Shown piece after piece: positions 1 through 60,336 of a stretch of 64,000 bases of DNA. Each line of letters starts with the position of its first letter. The stretch's first letter is position 1. The notes under the pieces were generated by a model. That model did no database searches and had not been told where the DNA came from. It saw only the letters and a list, made by a program, of their open reading frames with translations. This DNA is from Gammaproteobacteria bacterium (GTDB lineage Bacteria > Pseudomonadota > Gammaproteobacteria > UBA4575), in the NCBI GenBank assembly GCA_965203475.1, contig OZ241890.1, forward strand, positions 1,873,448-1,937,447. The letters are read 5' to 3'. A program made the translations under genes and the position numbers.

Positions 1-960
1 TATGGCAACCAAGTGGTTGGCGCCCTAGACAAAGCAAAATCAACTACAGGAACTGCAAACCTGAGAGTATTTAAAAATAAAATTTTGCTATTGGTTGAAA
101 CACTGCAATCCTCTCAAAAAGGAACCAAAAAAGTCAGCAACGATCTTTTCGTTAAACATATCGAAGCAATAAATAATTTGCTTATTGATGTTCGAAGCGA
201 AACCATGAGCTTACATGAGAGCTTGAATATCCTAGAGGATACTACTGCAGCAAATGAAGATGACCAGAAGCGCTTCGATTCATCAATTGAATTATTACGC
301 AAACAAACAACTTCAGTAAATCAGATTTTAGCTGAATATTATATTTTACGATTAAAAGTTTTAGCACGTGCTATACATCAAAAACGTAAGCTTATCGAGA
401 CTAGGGAAGAAACGATTAAAGAAAAACAAATACTGCTTGATGATTATCAAGAGGATTTGAAAAATTCTCAAAATCTTTGGAAGCGCACCATGAAGCGCAA
501 ACAAACCAAAGACGAAACGAAAGAAGCACAACAAAAAATTTATGATTTGGTTAATGAAATTAAGGCTAGTGAAGTAGTAATCGCAGAGAGTGATTTAATC
601 TTATGGTTAGATGCCATTGTAGAAGCCACATTGAATGAAGATTCAAAACAAAGAGTAATTAAGTCTTTACGCCAGGCAAGAATTTCACTTTACTATTTGT
701 TAAATAAGTTTTGCGCATCACAAGAAGCTTCTGCGATTCAAATCGCAAAAAATCCATTTATCCAAGTTGATCCAGAGAAAGCCATTAAGTTTGTGTTAAT
801 GTCTGAACAGTTTATTTTGAATTATTTCACCAAAAAGAAAAATACGGCTACTGCTTGGCTAAGCGGTGCAGCAGAAAATAAAATTGCAGAGCTAGATCAA
901 TTACAAAAAGATATATTGTCTGAACTTAAAAAAGCGAGCAAATCATTTTTTAAAATTTAG
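1..960 (+). CDS. hypothetical coiled-coil protein, probably N-terminally truncated by the window edge
   Basis: The frame is open from nt 1, and the track start at 13 is a GTG. The product is K/E/Q-rich with heptad-like helical sequence. I recognised no family. Confidence 0.45.
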   Translation, partial: YGNQVVGALDKAKSTTGTANLRVFKNKILLLVETLQSSQKGTKKVSNDLFVKHIEAINNLLIDVRSETMSLHESLNILEDTTAANEDDQKRFDSSIELLRKQTTSVNQILAEYYILRLKVLARAIHQKRKLIETREETIKEKQILLDDYQEDLKNSQNLWKRTMKRKQTKDETKEAQQKIYDLVNEIKASEVVIAESDLILWLDAIVEATLNEDSKQRVIKSLRQARISLYYLLNKFCASQEASAIQIAKNPFIQVDPEKAIKFVLMSEQFILNYFTKKKNTATAWLSGAAENKIAELDQLQKDILSELKKASKSFFKI

Positions 961-982
961 AGTGATGTCCTAACTCTTGCTT

Positions 983-1315
983 TTAGTTTAATAAGCTTAA
1001 TTCTTGATTCTGTAACGCTTCTTGGCGTTGCTTTTCGTGTTGTAAAGCAATAATGGATAGTACAGCTGTTGCAATTATCGAAATTGCCAGTGAAATACAC
1101 AAAGAAATGATCCAAACTTTGGTTTTGCGTCTGCGCAAAATCCAATAAAAAATCCAGCTAAATAAGAAAAAAACTAAAAATCCAAAACAGTAGCGTGCTA
1201 CAAATATAGCATCTCTTGCTCCTTCAACATTATTTACAAGCTCAGTGTACAAATGCCAGCCAATAACCGCTAATACCAAAGATAAAATAATATGCAGAAC
1301 AAACCGTGGTTTCAT
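983..1315 (-). CDS. hypothetical small membrane protein (3 predicted TM segments)
   Basis: 110-aa ORF with three hydrophobic stretches. It is preferred over the overlapping 62-aa ORF at 957..1145. Confidence 0.4.
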   Translation of the reverse strand: MKPRFVLHIILSLVLAVIGWHLYTELVNNVEGARDAIFVARYCFGFLVFFLFSWIFYWILRRRKTKVWIISLCISLAISIIATAVLSIIALQHEKQRQEALQNQELSLLN

Positions 1316-4450: not shown

Positions 4451-5293
4451 ATGCTGAATGAAAATAAAAAATGGTTTACTGAAGAATGTATCGAATGCGG
4501 TAGTGCATATTCGCTTGAGATTAATGAAAAACTACACGAAGAACAAACTCAATTTCAAAAAATTGAAATTTACTCTACCAAAAGCTCCGGAAATTTATTG
4601 GTAATAGATGGTTATATAATGCTATCTGAAAGGGATAACTTCATCTATCATGAAATGTTGGCTCATCCCATAATTTACTGCCACCCCAATCCAAAAAATG
4701 TTGTCATTGTAGGCGGAGGTGACTGCGGCACTCTGCAAGAAGTTGCGAAGCACAAAAAAATTTCATCGATTGTCCAAGTAGAAATTGATCAACGCGTTAC
4801 TGAACTTTCAGAAGAATATTTTCCTCAACTATGTTCAGCAAACAATGACTCAAGAGTTGAATTAATTTTTGAAGATGCGATTGAATGGTTTCAAAAAGCT
4901 GAAATAAACTCAATTGACATCATTATTGTGGATAGCACTGATCCAATAGGTCCCGCGAAAGGTTTATTTTCTACGCCTTTTTATAAGAACTGTTTCCAGG
5001 CACTCAAGCAAGATGGGTTGTTAGTGCAACAAAGCGAGTCTCCATTAATACATTTAGAAAGCATCATTGAACCTATGCATCAATGCATGAATCAAGCGGG
5101 GTTTTCACACACCCAGCTAATCTATTTCCCGCTACCCAGCTACCCTACAGGCTGGTGGAGTGCCACACTCGCAAGCCAAAACAAGATATCACATAGTAAT
5201 TTGATAGATACTAAGGAAATTGCTACCCGTTACTACAATCCAGAAATACATAATGCGTGTTTTGCTACTCCACAATTTTTAATTAACAAATAG
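4451..5293 (+). CDS. speE: polyamine aminopropyltransferase (spermidine synthase)
   Basis: 280 aa with motifs LVIDG, YHEML.H, VVIVGGGDG-like (GGGDCG) and VDSTDP.GPA, which are typical of SpeE. Confidence 0.9.
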   Translation: MLNENKKWFTEECIECGSAYSLEINEKLHEEQTQFQKIEIYSTKSSGNLLVIDGYIMLSERDNFIYHEMLAHPIIYCHPNPKNVVIVGGGDCGTLQEVAKHKKISSIVQVEIDQRVTELSEEYFPQLCSANNDSRVELIFEDAIEWFQKAEINSIDIIIVDSTDPIGPAKGLFSTPFYKNCFQALKQDGLLVQQSESPLIHLESIIEPMHQCMNQAGFSHTQLIYFPLPSYPTGWWSATLASQNKISHSNLIDTKEIATRYYNPEIHNACFATPQFLINK

Positions 5294-13253: not shown

Positions 13254-13934
13254 TTAATTAGCTTCTTGCTTAGCTAAAATTTCGATCAATTCTAAAACTT
13301 TTTCATAACCACCAGCACTACTGGCATTGGTACGATATTTACCATTGACGATTACGGCAGGCACAGAAGTTGCGCCATATTGTCGAGATAGCTGATCTGC
13401 CCGTTTGATTTTAGTTTCGACATAAAACGAGTCATAGGCTTTTTTAAATTCTTCAGCATCTACCCCGTGTTGGGATAAAAAACGCGACATGGATTCAACA
13501 TCGCGTAAACGTCTTCCTTGGGCATGAATAGCTTCGAAAATAATTGGATGAACGCGTTCTATTTCACCCATGGTCTCTAATGCATAATATGCCCGTGCAT
13601 GCGGCACCCAACTTCGATTCAACACGGCTGGCATTGGTGTAAACAAAATGTTTTCGGCTTTGTTTGGTTTCCAAACTTTTAAATATTTTTCAAATTCATA
13701 ACAGTGGGGACATCCGTACCAAAATAATTCCACCACTTCTACTTGACCTTCTTCTACATCGGTAGCCACTGTTGGAGAAAGTCGGTGAAAATGTTGTCCT
13801 TCAACAAACTGTGTAGATGGCGGTTTGCTTTCTTCTGCACACGCCGTAACAAAACTAATTGCGGTAAATAGAATTACACAAAAGATATATTTTACTTTTA
13901 CTACTTGAGTAGAGTAATTTTTTAATAAGTTCAT
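13254..13934 (-). CDS. dsbA: thiol:disulfide interchange protein DsbA
   Basis: 226 aa with a signal/anchor sequence, the thioredoxin active site CPHC and a DsbA-like C-terminal VPAVIVNGKY. Confidence 0.88.
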   Translation of the reverse strand: MNLLKNYSTQVVKVKYIFCVILFTAISFVTACAEESKPPSTQFVEGQHFHRLSPTVATDVEEGQVEVVELFWYGCPHCYEFEKYLKVWKPNKAENILFTPMPAVLNRSWVPHARAYYALETMGEIERVHPIIFEAIHAQGRRLRDVESMSRFLSQHGVDAEEFKKAYDSFYVETKIKRADQLSRQYGATSVPAVIVNGKYRTNASSAGGYEKVLELIEILAKQEAN

Positions 13935-14022
13935 AATTCTAGTTATTAGGAATAATTAAGCATAAGACCAAAGGTAAAAATAAAAGTTCTAATGCTAATT
14001 TTTTAGCTAGCACATCAGTGGC

Positions 14023-14664: not shown

Positions 14665-14909
14665 GCTTATGTAACCTTGTTTTTTATCTGTAGTTATTTA
14701 TTTCGAATATCATCAGAGCTAGGGTTTAAACGGCAGCTTGGTATACCACAATCCCCGCATAGCCGCAAAATACGCCCCTTCTCCTAAACGGGACATCATG
14801 GACTCAATTTTCAAGTACAGTATCGCCGTAGGCGCTAATATCTTACTATCACAGACTTTCGCTGACAGCCATACCAAGGCAACAATTGTACACATTGTTT
14901 GTATCCCCA

Positions 14910-15530
14910 ATGAGTATTCCTTTTACTAAAGCACAATTCTTGCGCAGCGCTTCATCGGCTGGAGATTTTCCAATTGATGCCGGCGCTGAAATTGCATTTT
15001 GTGGTCGATCCAATGCAGGGAAATCAAGTGCTATAAATGCACTTTGTAATCAAAATAATTTAGCTCGCACCAGCAAGACGCCGGGACGTACTCAATTAAT
15101 TAATTTTTTTACACTGGATGGTGATACTCGTTTGGTTGACTTGCCCGGCTATGGTTATGCTAAAGCGCCCGTAAACGTACAGCGACATTGGCATGAGTTA
15201 ATGGAGACCTACTTGGTCAATCGGCAAGTGTTGTACGGGCTCGTTTTGCTTATGGATATACGCCACCCACTCACTGAAATTGATTGGAAAATGATTCATT
15301 GGAGTCAACATTACCAATTACCTTTATATGTATTGCTGACCAAGGCCGATAAAGTAAAACGTGGAAAAATGATGCAAACTGTAACCAAAGTTGCTGCACA
15401 ACTTGAACAAGAGATGCCGGAAACCGCAATTCAGGTGTTTTCCGCTACCAAAAAAATGGGCGTTTCCCAGGCTCAAAATCACCTAGCAAATTGGCTGGAA
15501 TCGGCTCTTACTGAAAAAACGCCCCGGTAA
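14910..15530 (+). CDS. engB: ribosome-biogenesis GTPase EngB/YihA
   Basis: G1 motif GRSNAGKSS, followed by DLPGYGY and TKADK. I prefer the ATG at 14910 to the TTG at 14886 given in the track. Confidence 0.88.
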   Translation: MSIPFTKAQFLRSASSAGDFPIDAGAEIAFCGRSNAGKSSAINALCNQNNLARTSKTPGRTQLINFFTLDGDTRLVDLPGYGYAKAPVNVQRHWHELMETYLVNRQVLYGLVLLMDIRHPLTEIDWKMIHWSQHYQLPLYVLLTKADKVKRGKMMQTVTKVAAQLEQEMPETAIQVFSATKKMGVSQAQNHLANWLESALTEKTPR

Positions 15531-15623
15531 CGATTACCGGGGCCAAGCTTAAGGACTCGGTTGGGGACCCCGAGCCGTTAAATGCCCGCTAAGGGAGGGA
15601 AGCGGGAGCGCATTATCTGCGCT
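15514..15623 (-). ncRNA. candidate sigmaE/AlgU-dependent sRNA (ErsA/Spot 42 locus equivalent)
   Basis: The minus strand reads as follows: a promoter (next feature), hairpin GCGCAgauaaUGCGC, hairpin CCCGCuucccucccuuaGCGGG, hairpin CUCGGgguccccaaCCGAG, then the terminator GCCCCGGUAAucgUUACCGGGGC followed by G and UUUUUU. The stretch is GC-rich in an AT-rich genome. The ends are approximate. Confidence 0.55.
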
Positions 15624-15629
15624 TATTCC

Positions 15630-15656
15630 TTAGAGGATAAAAATAAGAAAAAGTTC
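15630..15656 (-). promoter_or_regulatory. sigmaE/AlgU-type promoter
   Basis: The minus strand reads GAACTT-N16-TCTAA, against the consensus GAACTT-N16/17-TCTGA (AlgU) or TCAAA (RpoE). Confidence 0.55.
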
Positions 15657-15734
15657 GCCTTATATTTCAAGACGATAGAAAAGTTTAGATGCTGTTTGAC
15701 GAATTTGTGGACAATGCTAAATTAAAACGGATAT

Positions 15735-16112
15735 TCAAAACCGCGTTTTGATCGAAATGCCGTAACCGTCTTCGTCCTCATCAGGAATGATGCGATCGTA
15801 GCGATCTTCAGCTCGTATCTGATCTAAATTGTCCCCTTGATACAATTGAAAGGAAAATTTTTTCTGTATAGGAGAATTGGTTTCTAAATCAAGAATGGTA
15901 TTGCTACGCATATTAATATCAAGATTTTGGCTGTTTTTAATAATGGCATTGGGCGACCAGATAAAGGGAAAACTGGTCTCTGAAGTTTCGAAGCCCTCAT
16001 ACTCTAGATCCAATGCCATCGCCACCTGTGCTACAGATGAAGCTGATGTTACTAGCGCGAGAAATAAAGTTACTTTTATGACATTCCTTATCATGCAAAA
16101 GTCCTTGAGCAT
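15735..16112 (-). CDS. hypothetical secreted protein
   Basis: 125 aa with a signal-peptide-like N-terminus. No family recognised. Confidence 0.4.
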   Translation of the reverse strand: MLKDFCMIRNVIKVTLFLALVTSASSVAQVAMALDLEYEGFETSETSFPFIWSPNAIIKNSQNLDINMRSNTILDLETNSPIQKKFSFQLYQGDNLDQIRAEDRYDRIIPDEDEDGYGISIKTRF

Positions 16113-16330
16113 TGTTCACTCTTAATAAAGAGTGTTCTTTAACTTCAGGCAATATATAAGAGTAAAAAGAGTAATTGCTACGACGCGAGATAAAATGTAG
16201 GTCGTAAAAGATAAGTGGGAAATGCTTACAGTACCCAATTTCCTTGAGTGATCAACATTGTTTCATTGTAATGTTTGTAACGTACTAATTTTGGATGAGT
16301 TGCAATTAGTATCTATACATAATCAATAAG

Positions 16331-19063
16331 TTAATGTGCCTCATCCCAATTGTCACCAATAGCAACATCCACCACTAGCGGAACCGATAGTTCTGCAGCT
16401 CCCTGCATGTCTAGAATTACGCGTTGTTGTACCGCTTGCAAATCCTTCTCATTTACTTCAAATACTAATTCATCATGCACCTGCATAATCATCTTGCAAT
16501 CATGTTGCTGCGTTTGCAGCCAAGCATCAATTTGAATCATAGCGCGTTTAATAATATCAGCTGCTGTACCTTGCATTGGGGCATTAATGGCAGTGCGCTC
16601 TGCGTATTGTCGTCGTTGCACATTTTTATTATTTATATCGGGCAAATAAAGTCTTCGACCAAACAGTGTCTCAACATATCCTTGCGAGCGGGCTTGCTCA
16701 CGTATGTTATCCATGTATTTTTTTACGCCTGGATAACGTTGAAAATATAAGCTGACATATTTTTGTGCCTCGGTGCGGGTAGTTCCAAGTTGTCGTGCCA
16801 ATCCAAAAGCTGACATGCCATAAATTAAGCCAAAATTAATTGCTTTGGCTGCTCGGCGTTGCTCTGCTGCAACCTCGCTCAACTTCAAACTAAACACTTC
16901 TGCTGCTGTGGCACGATGAATATCTTCGCCATCTGCAAACGCTTCACAAAGTCGCTCATCATTGGATAAATGCGCCATGATGCGCAATTCAATTTGCGAA
17001 TAATCGGCTGCTAAGATTTTACACTCTGGTGCTGCAATGAATGCTTTACGTATACGGCGTCCTTCTTCATTACGAATGGGTATGTTTTGTAAATTTGGAT
17101 CAGTAGACGACAGTCTTCCAGTAACGGCAACCGCTTGATGATACGAAGTGTGCACTCGATTGGTTTTAGCATTGATTAGCATGGGTAATTTATCCACATA
17201 GGTAGATTTTAATTTGCTCAGCATACGGTGTTCTAACAATAATTTTGGTAGTTCATAATCGTTAGCTAATTCTTGCAAAACATCCTCTGCTGTAGAGGGT
17301 TGACCTTTCGGTGTCTTACGCCGCACAGGTAAGCCCTGTTTCTCAAATAGAATTTCCTGAATCTGTTTAGGAGAACCTAAATTAAATTTCTCGCCTGCAA
17401 CGTCAAAGGCTTGTTTTTCTACGTCGGTTATTCGTTTTGAAAGTTGCTTACTTTGTTGTTGTAGTTGTTTGGCATCGAGCAATACTCCATTTCTTTCTAT
17501 ATTTGAAAGAACCGTTAACATCGGTAATTCAATCGTTGTATAAAGCTCTTTTTGTTTTGATTTATTCTTCTGCTGCAATTCAGACCAAAAAATATTGTGC
17601 AAACGCAGCACCATGTCGGCATCTTCAGCTGCATAGTCCGTAGCCGTTTCAAGATCTACTTGATCAAAAGTAATTTGGTTGCTACCTTTTCCTGCAACAT
17701 CTTCAAAATGAATATTGGTATGGTCTAGATGCTTTTCACATAGGGTGTCTAGATCATGTCGACTAGCTACTGAATTACATACATAGGACTGCAACATTGT
17801 GTCGTGTTGAATTTCATTCAAATGGACATCATGATTTAGTAGTACGCTTCGATCATATTTTAAATTATGGCCTATAAGTTTGGACGGATTCGCATTAAAC
17901 ACAGGTTCCAGTTGTTGTAAAATTTCTTCACGATGTAATTGCTTTGGCGCATCAGGATAGTCATGCACAAAAGGTACATATGCTGCCTCACCAGGTTTAT
18001 CCGAGAAAGAAATTCCCACCACGTTAGCCTGAATATAATCTAAACTGTCTGTTTCGGTATCAAATGCGACAAGCTTTGCTTTTACTAAACGTTTTAACCA
18101 ACGCTGAAAATCTTTTTTAGTAAGAATCAATTCATATTTGCCTTTCCCTGTGACAGGCTTGTCTTTTGTTTGTACTTCATCGTCAATTTCAGACTCATCA
18201 ACATCTAGTGTTTTCAACCAAGACTTAAACTCAAGTGCTTTATATAATTTGTATAGCTGTTTTGAATCTGGCGACTGCACTCGCAAGTCATCAATCGATT
18301 GCTCAAGTGTTACATCACATTTAATGGTCGTTAACTCCGAAGATAGTGGTAGTTGATCGATATGATCACGTAATTTTTCCCCCACCTTACCTTTAATTTG
18401 TTCTGCATTTTTTACCACACCATCTAGCGTTTTATATTCGTTTAACCATTTAGCCGCCGTTTTGGGTCCAACACTGGGCACACCTGGAATGTTGTCTGAC
18501 TTGTCTCCCATCAATGCCAGATAATCAATAATTTGATCCGGAGTTACACCAAATTTTTCTTTCACGCCCACCTCATCCATGCTGGTATTACTCATCGTGT
18601 TTACCAACATGACATCCTTATTTACGAGTTGCGCCATATCCTTATCCCCTGTTGACACTAAAACCTTATGTCCTTTTTCCACTGCAAGTTTGGCAAGTGT
18701 GCCAATTACATCATCTGCTTCCACACCTGGTTCCGAGATTAAAGGCAAGCCTAAGGCTTGCACTAACTCATGTAAGGGCTCTATCTGTGTTTGTAAATCC
18801 TCAGGCATCGAAGGACGATTAGCTTTGTATTCCTTGTATAAATCATGTCGAAATGTTTTACCTTTGGCGTCAAACACAACAGCCATATGTGTAGGATTTT
18901 CATCAGCCTGTAATTTCTTAATCATATTAATCACGCCATACACAGCGCCTGTTGGTTGGCCTGCTGATGTGCTGAGATGTTGCAGGTTCGGCACATGATA
19001 GGCTCGATACAAATAGGATGAGCCATCGACTAAAACCAAAGGCGTTGAATTTTTTTTAGGCAT
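16331..19063 (-). CDS. polA: DNA polymerase I
   Basis: 910 aa with 5'-3' exonuclease, 3'-5' exonuclease and family A polymerase domains. Motifs include DYSQIELR and QVHDELVFE. Confidence 0.97.
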   Translation of the reverse strand: MPKKNSTPLVLVDGSSYLYRAYHVPNLQHLSTSAGQPTGAVYGVINMIKKLQADENPTHMAVVFDAKGKTFRHDLYKEYKANRPSMPEDLQTQIEPLHELVQALGLPLISEPGVEADDVIGTLAKLAVEKGHKVLVSTGDKDMAQLVNKDVMLVNTMSNTSMDEVGVKEKFGVTPDQIIDYLALMGDKSDNIPGVPSVGPKTAAKWLNEYKTLDGVVKNAEQIKGKVGEKLRDHIDQLPLSSELTTIKCDVTLEQSIDDLRVQSPDSKQLYKLYKALEFKSWLKTLDVDESEIDDEVQTKDKPVTGKGKYELILTKKDFQRWLKRLVKAKLVAFDTETDSLDYIQANVVGISFSDKPGEAAYVPFVHDYPDAPKQLHREEILQQLEPVFNANPSKLIGHNLKYDRSVLLNHDVHLNEIQHDTMLQSYVCNSVASRHDLDTLCEKHLDHTNIHFEDVAGKGSNQITFDQVDLETATDYAAEDADMVLRLHNIFWSELQQKNKSKQKELYTTIELPMLTVLSNIERNGVLLDAKQLQQQSKQLSKRITDVEKQAFDVAGEKFNLGSPKQIQEILFEKQGLPVRRKTPKGQPSTAEDVLQELANDYELPKLLLEHRMLSKLKSTYVDKLPMLINAKTNRVHTSYHQAVAVTGRLSSTDPNLQNIPIRNEEGRRIRKAFIAAPECKILAADYSQIELRIMAHLSNDERLCEAFADGEDIHRATAAEVFSLKLSEVAAEQRRAAKAINFGLIYGMSAFGLARQLGTTRTEAQKYVSLYFQRYPGVKKYMDNIREQARSQGYVETLFGRRLYLPDINNKNVQRRQYAERTAINAPMQGTAADIIKRAMIQIDAWLQTQQHDCKMIMQVHDELVFEVNEKDLQAVQQRVILDMQGAAELSVPLVVDVAIGDNWDEAH

Positions 19064-29447: not shown

Positions 29448-29474
29448 AATAAATTAGGTTGGTACCAATAAACT

Positions 29475-29595
29475 ACAAACATAAATTGTCGGCTTGCGAC
29501 CCTGAGCGCATGGATGCGCGAATAAGAGTTCCATCAAGGATGATGCAGCAGATTAATATTCTTATAATGCCTGCTAACGACCCAAAGCGGACATT
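29475..29595 (+). repeat. structured 121-nt repeat, copy A1 (full element)
   Basis: Positions 29501-29595 are 95/95 identical to 30202-30296. The ends are imperfectly inverted (aattgtcggcttgcgaccc / gacccaaagcggacatt). Internal hairpins are gcgcat-gg-atgcgc and catca-agga-tgatg. Confidence 0.9.
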
Positions 29596-29622
29596 ATAAA
29601 TTCAAATCAATTTCCTCTAAGA

Positions 29623-30117: not shown

Positions 30118-30175
30118 TCGCTATTGGCTGAAAGGAGACTTAATTGAGGTTTAAAGAGGTTGGATTCAAAAATTT

Positions 30176-30296
30176 ACAAACTTAAAACGTCAGCTTTCGA
30201 TCCTGAGCGCATGGATGCGCGAATAAGAGTTCCATCAAGGATGATGCAGCAGATTAATATTCTTATAATGCCTGCTAACGACCCAAAGCGGACATT
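30176..30296 (+). repeat. structured 121-nt repeat, copy A2 (full element)
   Basis: See A1. The 5' 26 nt have diverged (acaaac.taaa..gtc.gctt.cga.cc is conserved). The 3' end lies 4 nt before the next ATG. Confidence 0.9.
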
Positions 30297-30300
30297 TTGA

Positions 30301-30672
30301 ATGTTAGACATCTTTTCAAAACCTGTAATCGCATTAATTTTAGTCGCAATAATTTTCATTTTGCTTTTTGGTAAGTATTGGCGAGTACCTATTGATCATG
30401 CGCATTGGAATAAAAATACGAAGCGCGCTACTTACCTCACAATTTTAATAATTCTAACAGGTGTGTTTTTAACTGATATAGATGCAATAAGATCATCAAT
30501 TTACTGTATTGGAGCATTGTCACTATTACTTTATCCATGGTTTAGATGGGATACACCAAGAAGGTATTTTCATGAACTTGCGCCAATAGAATATAATTTA
30601 GTATTTGGTTGGGCTGGGATAATAATTTGTTTATCTTGGGTTATTTTTCGGCTCTACACTGATAATTTTTAG
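30301..30672 (+). CDS. hypothetical membrane protein (4 TM)
   Basis: 123-aa hydrophobic ORF lying between repeat copies A2 and A3. Confidence 0.45.
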   Translation: MLDIFSKPVIALILVAIIFILLFGKYWRVPIDHAHWNKNTKRATYLTILIILTGVFLTDIDAIRSSIYCIGALSLLLYPWFRWDTPRRYFHELAPIEYNLVFGWAGIIICLSWVIFRLYTDNF

Positions 30673-30704: not shown

Positions 30705-30813
30705 GGCCGAAAGTCGACGTTTTAAATTCTTCGAACTTTAACCGGTTGCATCGTCCCTGATGGAACTCTTATTCGCATATCCCTATGCTCACTATTGGCC
30801 GAAAGCAGACATT
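30705..30813 (-). repeat. repeat copy A3: two partial, inverted pieces of the A element
   Basis: 30705-30725 is approximately the reverse complement of the A2 5' end. 30759-30813 is approximately the reverse complement of the A1 left arm (gatggaactcttattcgc is exact), and contains the hairpin gcata-tccc-tatgc. Confidence 0.75.
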
Positions 30814-58584: not shown

Positions 58585-58706
58585 AATATGGACGAAGTGC
58601 ATGGTTGTGAGCATAGGGAAAAGCGAATATGAGTCGAATCATGAATGATTCGAACAGATTAATCTTTTCTTTATCGAATGTCCGCTAACGATCCAAAGCG
58701 GACATT
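58585..58706 (+). repeat. repeat copy A4 (diverged full element)
   Basis: It aligns with A1 across gagc.cat.gg...gcgaata.gagt..atca.g.atgat...cagattaat...gctaacga.ccaaagcggacatt. It has a local hairpin gaatgtccgc/gcggacattc, and the internal hairpin is replaced by gaatcat-ga-atgattc. Confidence 0.75.
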
Positions 58707-60040: not shown

Positions 60041-60133
60041 AAATTTAATTTCAGAATTGTTAACAAATGACCGATAGTGGAAATTAAGATCATCTAACTT
60101 TAATCTGATACAATATCCTTGTTGTAACTCTTA

Positions 60134-60230
60134 TTCGCGCGGTCGCTCCCGACTTCCTGTCTCCCGCGACACTTGTGCGTCCATGCACATCGTCCTGTGC
60201 TCAGGTCGAAAGCAGACATTTTAAAAGAAA
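60134..60230 (-). repeat. repeat copy A5a (inverted left arm of the A element with an insertion of about 35 nt)
   Basis: gtaactcttattcgcgc...gtgcgtccatgcaca...ctcaggtcgaaagcagacatt is approximately the reverse complement of A1 29484-29533. The hairpin is kept as tgtgc-gtccat-gcaca. Confidence 0.7.
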
Positions 60231-60277: not shown

Positions 60278-60302
60278 ACTTCCCACTTCCATGTAGGTCG
60301 TC

Positions 60303-60325
60303 CATGATTCGACTCATATTCGCTT
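60303..60325 (-). repeat. repeat fragment A5b
   Basis: A 23-nt exact reverse complement of A4 positions 58621-58643 (aagcgaatatgagtcgaatcatg). Confidence 0.8.
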
Positions 60326-60336
60326 AACCCTTACCC

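Follow-up and report, generated by a model that had tools for sequence, protein, structure and literature searches.

A stretch between engB and polA on the minus strand of contig OZ241890.1, from an uncultured gammaproteobacterium, was analyzed within a window of 64,000 nucleotides (nt), to which all positions refer. An earlier note had predicted a small regulatory RNA (sRNA) under a sigma-E/AlgU-type promoter at this site. The comparison with relatives indicates that the stretch is very probably a real regulatory RNA gene of about 110 nt with a promoter of the sigma-E type. It is likely that 15623-15514 (minus strand) encodes a roughly 110-nt member of the anti-hemB family, which has its own extracytoplasmic function (ECF) promoter and its own terminator and would regulate other genes in trans under envelope stress via C-rich loops. 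The features of the RNA and of its surroundings are compiled in Table 1.

The decisive argument that the RNA is real beyond chance came from its relatives. From 28 related loci, designated L001 and so on, 25 further copies were collected, and engB lay tail-to-tail with the sRNA in every locus recovered. A genome scan based on EngB led to two uncultured Thiotrichales metagenome-assembled genomes (MAGs). In one of the loci, L001, the EngB protein is 66% identical to that of the window, and a homologous RNA follows engB; the promoter pattern and hairpin 2 are identical to those of the window, and hairpin 1 and the terminator carry compensatory changes. The loci L021, L025, and L028 were also retrieved through EngB proteins, a selection that is unbiased regarding the RNA, and they carry the sRNA as well. 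A scan of metagenomes with the 22-nt hairpin-2 pattern alone yielded 18 loci, and engB was convergent right after the RNA in all 18; polA was upstream in most of them, usually together with a homologue of orf125, the small gene between polA and the sRNA. The sRNA and its promoter were kept in loci from which polA (L028, L021) or orf125 (L003, L017) is absent. In three betaproteobacterial loci (L019, L030, L031), hemB is found upstream of the sRNA in place of polA; the EngB protein of L019 is closest to that of the Gallionellaceae, a betaproteobacterial family.

The RNA is not uniform among these relatives. Ectothiorhodospira mobilis (L021, GCA_900114895.1) has a tandem pair of sRNA genes after engB (4654-4777 and 4848-4965, minus strand), each with its own GAACTT-N16-TC... 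promoter, and the distal copy has the loop AACCCCCU in place of UCCUCCCU. This suggests a duplication that was followed by divergence of the seed. In marine Pseudomonadales-type MAGs (L023, L027, L029), the loci of which were likewise retrieved through EngB alone, a more divergent RNA was found at the same place, with the promoter GAACTT-N16-TCATA, two hairpins, and CCCC/CCCCCC loops. In L023 (4620-4760) and L027 (3640-3740, minus strand), several tandem CCCGGGAUUUUUUU-like units, which resemble stacked mini-terminators, come after the divergent sRNA, and repeats of ctccagcgtttaaat lie between these units and engB. Not every engB has the RNA as a neighbour, because no homologue was found in the region of this gene in N. 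gonorrhoeae, A. baumannii, and L. adelaidensis.

The promoter GAACTT-N16-TCTAA (15656-15630, minus strand), which had been assigned to the sigma-E class, is indeed present and is conserved. Its geometry is identical to that of the E. coli genes micA (GAACTC-N16-TCTGA-N6-+1) and rybB (GAACTT-N16-TCTTA-N6-+1), two classic sigma-E sRNA genes that were fetched for comparison. In both genes, the annotated 5' end is the seventh base past the -10 pentamer, and by this rule the start would be A15623, where hairpin 1 begins, which yields an RNA of 110 nt. The window promoter also agrees with the ECF02 type, which is characterized by GGAACTT, a spacer of 16-17 nt, TCnnA, and a start about 7 nt past the -10 element. 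In an alignment of 17 sequences, GAACT and TC..A were invariant, while the sequence of the 16-nt spacer was free to vary. The pattern GAAC(T)(T/A)-N16-TCnnA was present in the window and in 25 of 25 copies from related loci, where it ended 20-28 nt before hairpin 2. The exact pattern of the window occurs a single time in the window, and in 16 related loci it occurs once per locus, each time directly upstream of the homologous RNA. A scan of the minus strand upstream of the sRNA for a sigma-70-like promoter found none.

The three consecutive hairpins that had been described were recovered, and their stems covary. The sRNA folds with -51.2 kcal/mol (z = -3.4), a stability that none of 200 shuffled sequences reached. 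Hairpins 1 and 2 abut, and the linkers elsewhere comprise just 8-10 nt. Among all 111-nt segments of the window, the sRNA stretch also has the highest GC content (58.6% vs 39.6%, top 0.04% of segments). The evidence from the single window alone is moderate. A covariance model, R1, was built from 16 sequences; it recovered the window sRNA with 95 bits and no second copy within the window. When 23 sequences were aligned by fitting them to this model, 98.1% of the cells were paired and compensatory changes were observed in 18 of 26 pairs. These values were reached by none of 500 shuffles, and the pairing fell to 22-44% when the partners were shifted by 1-3 columns. An independent MAFFT/RNAalifold analysis returned the same four helices.

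The helices and loops are conserved in different ways. Compensatory changes were found in five of the seven stem pairs of hairpin 3 and in six of the seven modelled pairs of the terminator. The stem of hairpin 2 is 100% paired across the homologues, with one compensatory change from C-G to U-A (L031), and hairpin 2, stem and loop together, is the most conserved part of the RNA. In general, the loops are conserved above the stems: the CCUCCCU core of loop 2 is almost invariant and is kept from gamma- to betaproteobacteria, and the CCCC of loop 3 is kept in the gammaproteobacterial copies. A small-protein gene was ruled out, because an open reading frame (ORF) of 11 codons within the window's copy is not kept among the homologues. 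No ORF is conserved, and 12 of 23 copies are devoid of any AUG-initiated ORF, which argues for a non-coding RNA. Taken together, the conservation of promoter and loops, the covariation of the stems, and the 100% synteny with engB support the proposal of an independent sRNA at the position that is occupied by Spot 42 and ErsA in other bacteria.

Next, the family to which the RNA belongs was addressed. A scan of the whole window with Rfam at gathering thresholds gave no matches. With a permissive scan of 14800-16400, however, anti-hemB (RF02837) was matched at 15514-15607 (minus strand) with 38.4 bits and E = 5e-7. The alignment spans the whole model (positions 1-81 of 81) and runs through hairpin 2 and the terminator, with hairpin 2 as the core of the match. 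Scores of the relatives were graded. They ranged from 36 to 47 bits (L003, 47.4), followed by L019 with 49.4 bits and the engB-proximal copy of Ectothiorhodospira with 52.8 bits, which exceeds the Rfam cut-off; the betaproteobacterial loci L031 (Gallionellaceae) and L030 (Sideroxydans) reached 56.1 and 60.4 bits. All of these share the order of hairpins 1, 2, and 3 and terminator, and they have GGAACTA-N16-TCTGA promoters. In Sideroxydans (L030) and the Gallionellaceae locus L031, both of which were also retrieved through EngB proteins, the RNA is flanked by engB, with which it is convergent, and by hemB, from which it diverges. Because the model match, the architecture, the graded intermediates, the engB synteny, and the promoter class are all shared, we regard the window RNA as a divergent, sub-threshold gammaproteobacterial orthologue of anti-hemB/ncS04, and thus as a new addition to a known family rather than a new kind of element. 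The earlier note had stated that homology could not be established; it can, but to anti-hemB and not to Spot 42.

Weinberg et al. (2007) defined anti-hemB as a betaproteobacterial RNA that is probably non-coding and has a terminator at its end (PMC1950547). Its representative in B. cenocepacia J2315, known as ncS04, has a length of 105 nt on Northern blots, co-purifies with Hfq, and is situated between BCAL0264 and BCAL0265 in the orientation <- -> <- (PMC5688073, PMC4603805). The window RNA has the same architecture: the CCUCCCU loop is displayed by one hairpin, which is followed by another hairpin and an intrinsic terminator. The loop in the window is one nucleotide shorter (UUCCCUCCCUUA vs UUCUCCUCCCUGA). 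Likewise, engB is convergent downstream in both cases, and the fetched betaproteobacterial members have the ECF-type promoter in common with the window. In contrast, the upstream neighbour is polA/orf125 in the window and hemB in anti-hemB, and hemB was absent from the gammaproteobacterial loci with polA context that were examined. The literature has treated anti-hemB as hemB-associated or antisense (PMC1950547; bioRxiv 10.64898/2026.09.01.748597), and a 2026 preprint assigns it an antisense function in the regulation of heme synthesis (10.64898/2026.09.01.748597). The loci compared here do not favour a role as heme antisense RNA, and we propose from their gene orders that convergence with engB is the truly conserved synteny of the family. 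In the library of papers that was searched, none links anti-hemB with RpoE, engB, ErsA, or sX13.

Table 1. Features of the sRNA gene and its surroundings in the 64-kb window
Feature	Position	Strand	Basis
-35 element GAACTT, ECF sigma-E/AlgU-type	15651..15656	-	sequence; same hexamer as E. coli rybB
-10 element TCTAA, 16-nt spacer from -35	15630..15634	-	sequence and conservation
Predicted transcription start A (+/- 2-3 nt; inferred, not mapped)	15623	-	micA/rybB spacing rule
Hairpin 1, AGCGCA-gauaa-UGCGCU, 5' structural stem of variable sequence	15607..15623	-	fold; 6/6 pairs compensatory among 23 homologues
Hairpin 2, CCCGCU-UCCCUCCCUU-AGCGGG, putative seed (anti-Shine-Dalgarno-like)	15585..15606	-	fold and conservation
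Hairpin 3, GGCUCGG-GGUCCCCAA-CCGAGUC, stem extended by UUUAA/UUAAG, second C-rich loop (CCCC)	15554..15576	-	fold
A/U-rich linkers flanking hairpin 3	15577-15584, 15544-15553	-	fold
Intrinsic terminator GCCCCGGUAA-ucg-UUACCGGGGC, 10-bp GC-rich stem, then G + U6	15543-15521 (stem), 15520-15514 (G + U6)	-	terminator scan
engB/yihA, ribosome-biogenesis GTPase, convergent neighbour	14910..15530	+	ORF; 206-amino-acid database protein 100% identical
orf125, small secreted protein (125 amino acids) between polA and sRNA	15735..16112	-	ORF; no Pfam match
polA, DNA polymerase I, upstream co-oriented neighbour of sRNA	16331..19063	-	ORF and comparison with related loci
GGGAGG Shine-Dalgarno, 7 nt before ATG of 240-amino-acid Gcw_chp outer-membrane ORF preceding glnK and amtB	7822-7817	-	sequence

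Several steps can be proposed for the action of the RNA. Envelope stress would activate a sigma factor of the RpoE/AlgU class, and the sRNA would accumulate from its own promoter. The exposed C-rich loops, UCCCUCCCUU and CCCC, could then pair in trans with G-rich ribosome-binding regions (GGGAGG or GGGG) and block the initiation of translation of a set of mRNAs, as the C-rich loops of sX13 do. The A/U-rich linkers and the U6 tail would probably recruit Hfq, and the terminator would likely be the 3' module that binds it. If the RNA works like known sigma-E sRNAs, it would probably serve to lower the synthesis of envelope proteins under stress.

The earlier note had named the porin-glnK-amtB leader in connection with a possible pairing of the loop. 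A GGGAGG is indeed present there, upstream of the Gcw_chp gene, but no support for this target was found beyond the short match itself. For the target search, RNAduplex was used with the loop of hairpin 2 and the G-rich Shine-Dalgarno sites were listed, which covered 64 kb of the genome of about 2.4 Mb. The best non-self matches lay inside coding regions, and the sole site at a start codon was the Gcw_chp Shine-Dalgarno sequence, with 7 base pairs (bp) and -13.9 kcal/mol. In L028, a Gcw_chp gene (517-1203, minus strand) is located two genes from engB and the sRNA; its Shine-Dalgarno sequence, GGGAG, is weaker than the GGGAGG of the window.

Some results weigh against the interpretation as an envelope-stress regulator of the anti-hemB family. 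All public runs that hold the sequence (X1-X4) are DNA metagenome assemblies, in which it lies on single contigs of flat depth. The 38.4 bits of the window sRNA are below the anti-hemB gathering cut-off of 49.5, and the default Rfam scan missed it. Promoter patterns with up to one mismatch were found three times in the window versus 1.4 times expected, which is not significant alone. Part of the invariance of hairpin 2 reflects ascertainment: its sequence served as the query that yielded 18 of the loci. In the window, the complementarity to targets comprises 7 bp at a single Shine-Dalgarno site, and GGGAGG shows no enrichment (5 vs 7.8 expected); therefore, the Gcw_chp/porin target is regarded as unproven. 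Lastly, a dependence on Hfq is uncertain, because sX13 acts without it.

An alternative would be that the element acts mainly in cis on engB, either as an antisense 3' end or as a shared terminator for the engB and the polA-orf125 transcripts. The earlier note had described the terminator correctly: it ends with G + U6, the engB stop codon (ORF end 15530) is inside its stem, and the last engB codons are under the U-tract. The resulting overlap of 17-18 nt is found in the window (17 nt) and in 7 close relatives, and the convergence with engB is universal. The terminator scan did not detect a separate terminator for engB on the plus strand, so that read-through from engB would give an RNA complementary to the whole sRNA. 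Nevertheless, a main action in cis is unlikely. The sRNA and engB are separated by 10-22 nt in L001, L009, L025, L021 (Ectothiorhodospira), and L019 (Gallionellaceae), and by 129 nt in L005, yet the RNA is fully conserved in these loci. The most conserved parts, the promoter boxes and the loops, are far from engB, and an element that served for termination alone would require no conserved promoter of the sigma-E type and no pair of hairpins with invariant loops ahead of it. A shared terminator is further disfavoured by the lack of a T-run behind the hairpin on the plus strand. Thus, the proposed antisense relation to the 3' end of engB holds for the clade of the window and is replaced by a gap in other loci; the convergence with engB is a conserved feature of the locus, and the antisense overlap is a clade-specific packing detail.

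The trans action itself could take another form, i.e., the RNA could be a sigma-E-type sRNA that titrates a protein or the ribosome, as a decoy or as a mimic of the 16S anti-Shine-Dalgarno sequence, instead of pairing with mRNAs. Invariant loops on stable stems are typical of decoy RNAs that bind proteins, and we take the loop CCUCCCUUA to resemble the 3' end of 16S rRNA. Within the window, moreover, no convincing extended complementarity to an mRNA was found; however, the target search covered just this part of the genome. The closest characterised analogue, sX13, represses mRNAs by the pairing of its C-rich loops (PMC3771888), and titration is a rather improbable explanation.

The RNA might also be the structured 3' untranslated region of an orf125 or polA-orf125 mRNA, which is possibly processed to a 3'-derived sRNA. 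It is co-oriented with both genes, 111 nt separate the orf125 stop codon from the sRNA region, and a weak terminator-like hairpin (15675-15655) is the sole separator that was seen between orf125 and the sRNA. This origin appears quite improbable in view of the ECF promoter, which is at a fixed distance from the RNA even in loci without orf125 (L003, L017) or without polA (L021, L028) and is also kept where the upstream gene is a divergent hemB (L019, L030, L031). A repetitive extragenic palindromic (REP)-like or otherwise structural repetitive DNA with a coincidental promoter match, which consecutive GC-rich palindromes between genes of an AT-rich genome might bring to mind, is hardly credible, because both R1 and a repeat search found a single copy in the window, the position is one and the same in all 22 genomes or contigs with the canonical form, and the check in relatives showed conserved promoter boxes and hairpins with compensatory substitutions in the stems.

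The local gene order, derived from the ORF list and Pfam, is dsbA(-), cytochrome c4(-), engB(+), sRNA(-), orf125(-), and polA(-). The mechanical ORF of engB begins at the TTG at 14886, but the identical database protein has 206 amino acids, which implies that the real start is the ATG at 14910. The orf125 protein has a hydrophobic, signal-like segment at the N-terminus, and in 14 related loci, homologues with 30-49% identity are found at the equivalent position. Another motif of the sigma-E type, GAACTT-N16-TCTTA (13963-13989, minus strand), precedes dsbA by about 30 nt (start at 13934), and its hexamers equal those of E. coli rybB. Its class and spacing are kept in L002, L009-L012, L014, L015, and L025 (GAACTA/GAACCA-N16-TCTAT/TCTAA/TCCAA). 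The conserved motif suggests that this promoter class is in use in these genomes, and dsbA may be within the envelope-stress regulon of the lineage.

The window also contains a family of dispersed repeats of about 50-146 nt in direct (29456-29601 and 30157-30302) and inverted orientation (30726-30791, 58607-58706, 60084-60140, and 60298-60331). The two 146-nt copies at 29456-29601 and 30157-30302 are 90% identical and 701 nt apart. These repeats are unrelated to the sRNA and may be elements similar to miniature inverted-repeat transposable elements or to REP sequences, or ends of mobile elements.

In summary, an RNA gene that the default Rfam scan missed has been confidently annotated in an uncultured, AT-rich gammaproteobacterial lineage, and the range of the anti-hemB/ncS04 family is extended well into the Gammaproteobacteria. 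The hallmarks of the family appear to be the RpoE/AlgU-type promoter and the convergence with engB, and not the proximity to hemB. Their independence of hemB speaks against an action on heme synthesis, in cis or as antisense RNA, and in favour of a trans-acting regulator of envelope stress, the predicted regulon of which comprises mRNAs with GGGAGG or GGGG ribosome-binding sites. The RNA also provides a concrete sequence bridge among the separately described sRNAs of polA/engB loci, i.e., sX13, ErsA, Spot 42, and anti-hemB. We tentatively consider it possible, without regarding it as the likelier case, that the envelope-stress sRNA gene linked to engB is one ancient locus that predates the split of Beta- and Gammaproteobacteria and has diversified in place. 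If so, its forms would be anti-hemB/ncS04 in Burkholderiales and Gallionellaceae, the form of the window in Thiotrichales-like lineages and Ectothiorhodospira, the two-hairpin C-rich RNA in marine Pseudomonadales-type MAGs, sX13 in Xanthomonadaceae, and ErsA in Pseudomonas, and in enterics the locus would have come under the control of CRP in the form of Spot 42. Under that hypothesis, the name anti-hemB and the heme-antisense role would be misnomers for a trans-acting envelope-stress regulator.

The RNA can be compared with several characterized sRNAs. It shares with MicA and RybB of E. coli the promoter GAACT(T/C)-N16-TCT(G/T)A-N6-+1, and all are short RNAs with an intrinsic terminator. However, there is no similarity in sequence or structure, and MicA and RybB have single-stranded 5' seeds instead of C-rich hairpin loops. 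The CCUCCUCCC-motif sRNAs (RF02278, with ncS03, ncS05, and ncS27; MmgR/suhB, RF00519) have CU-rich loops that resemble an anti-Shine-Dalgarno sequence, as in the window. In the permissive scan, the Betaproteobacteria toxic sRNA model RF02278 and mmgR/suhB scored 19.6 and 18.1 bits on the same stretch, which is far below their cut-offs of 50 and 41 bits, and the loci and architectures differ.

Spot 42 (spf, RF00021) has the same gene order of polA, sRNA, and convergent yihA/engB, and its 3' hairpin is similar (GCCCCAGU...ACUGGGGCGUUUUUU vs GCCCCGGU...ACCGGGGCGUUUUUU). Homology was ruled out, because the Spot_42 covariance model, which the earlier note had suggested for a scan, gave 21.7 bits versus a cut-off of 80 bits, essentially via the terminator, and R1 scored just 11.2 bits on E. 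coli spf. Spot 42 is transcribed from a CRP-repressed housekeeping promoter, has single-stranded U-rich seed regions, and encodes SpfP; none of these features is present in the window RNA. ErsA of P. aeruginosa, the transcription of which depends on AlgU/sigma-22, has the locus and the promoter class in common with the window RNA. No ErsA-like family was among the Rfam matches at E up to 10 in the scan of 14800-16400. For ErsA, pairing is assigned to an unstructured, U-rich domain of 34 nt that separates SL1 from SL2 (PMC8575079). This domain is absent from the window RNA, which has a linker of 8 nt and C-rich loops as the conserved candidates for pairing.

The window RNA most resembles sX13 of Xanthomonas (RF02232), which by analogy would be its best functional model. 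The sX13 RNA has a length of 115 nt, is encoded 175 bp downstream of polA, and consists of three stems with C-rich loops (PMC3771888). The window RNA is of similar length (110 nt) and also downstream of polA, with orf125 intervening. Consecutive stable hairpins are common to both; in sX13 they have CCCC apical loops, whereas in the window C-rich loops are found in hairpins 2 and 3 but not in the other two, hairpin 1 and the terminator. The sequence match to the sX13 model was not significant (17.9 bits, E = 1.4, cut-off 50 bits); copy 2 of Ectothiorhodospira scored 24.1 bits. A further difference is that sX13 is Hfq-independent and has been reported just from Xanthomonadaceae. NaCl, a temperature of 37 C, and minimal medium lead to its accumulation, and it represses mRNAs with G-rich motifs at their ribosome-binding sites, as was shown with loop and target mutants and compensatory reporters (PMC3771888). 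Its authors asked whether the polA loci of other bacteria encode similar RNAs (PMC3771888).

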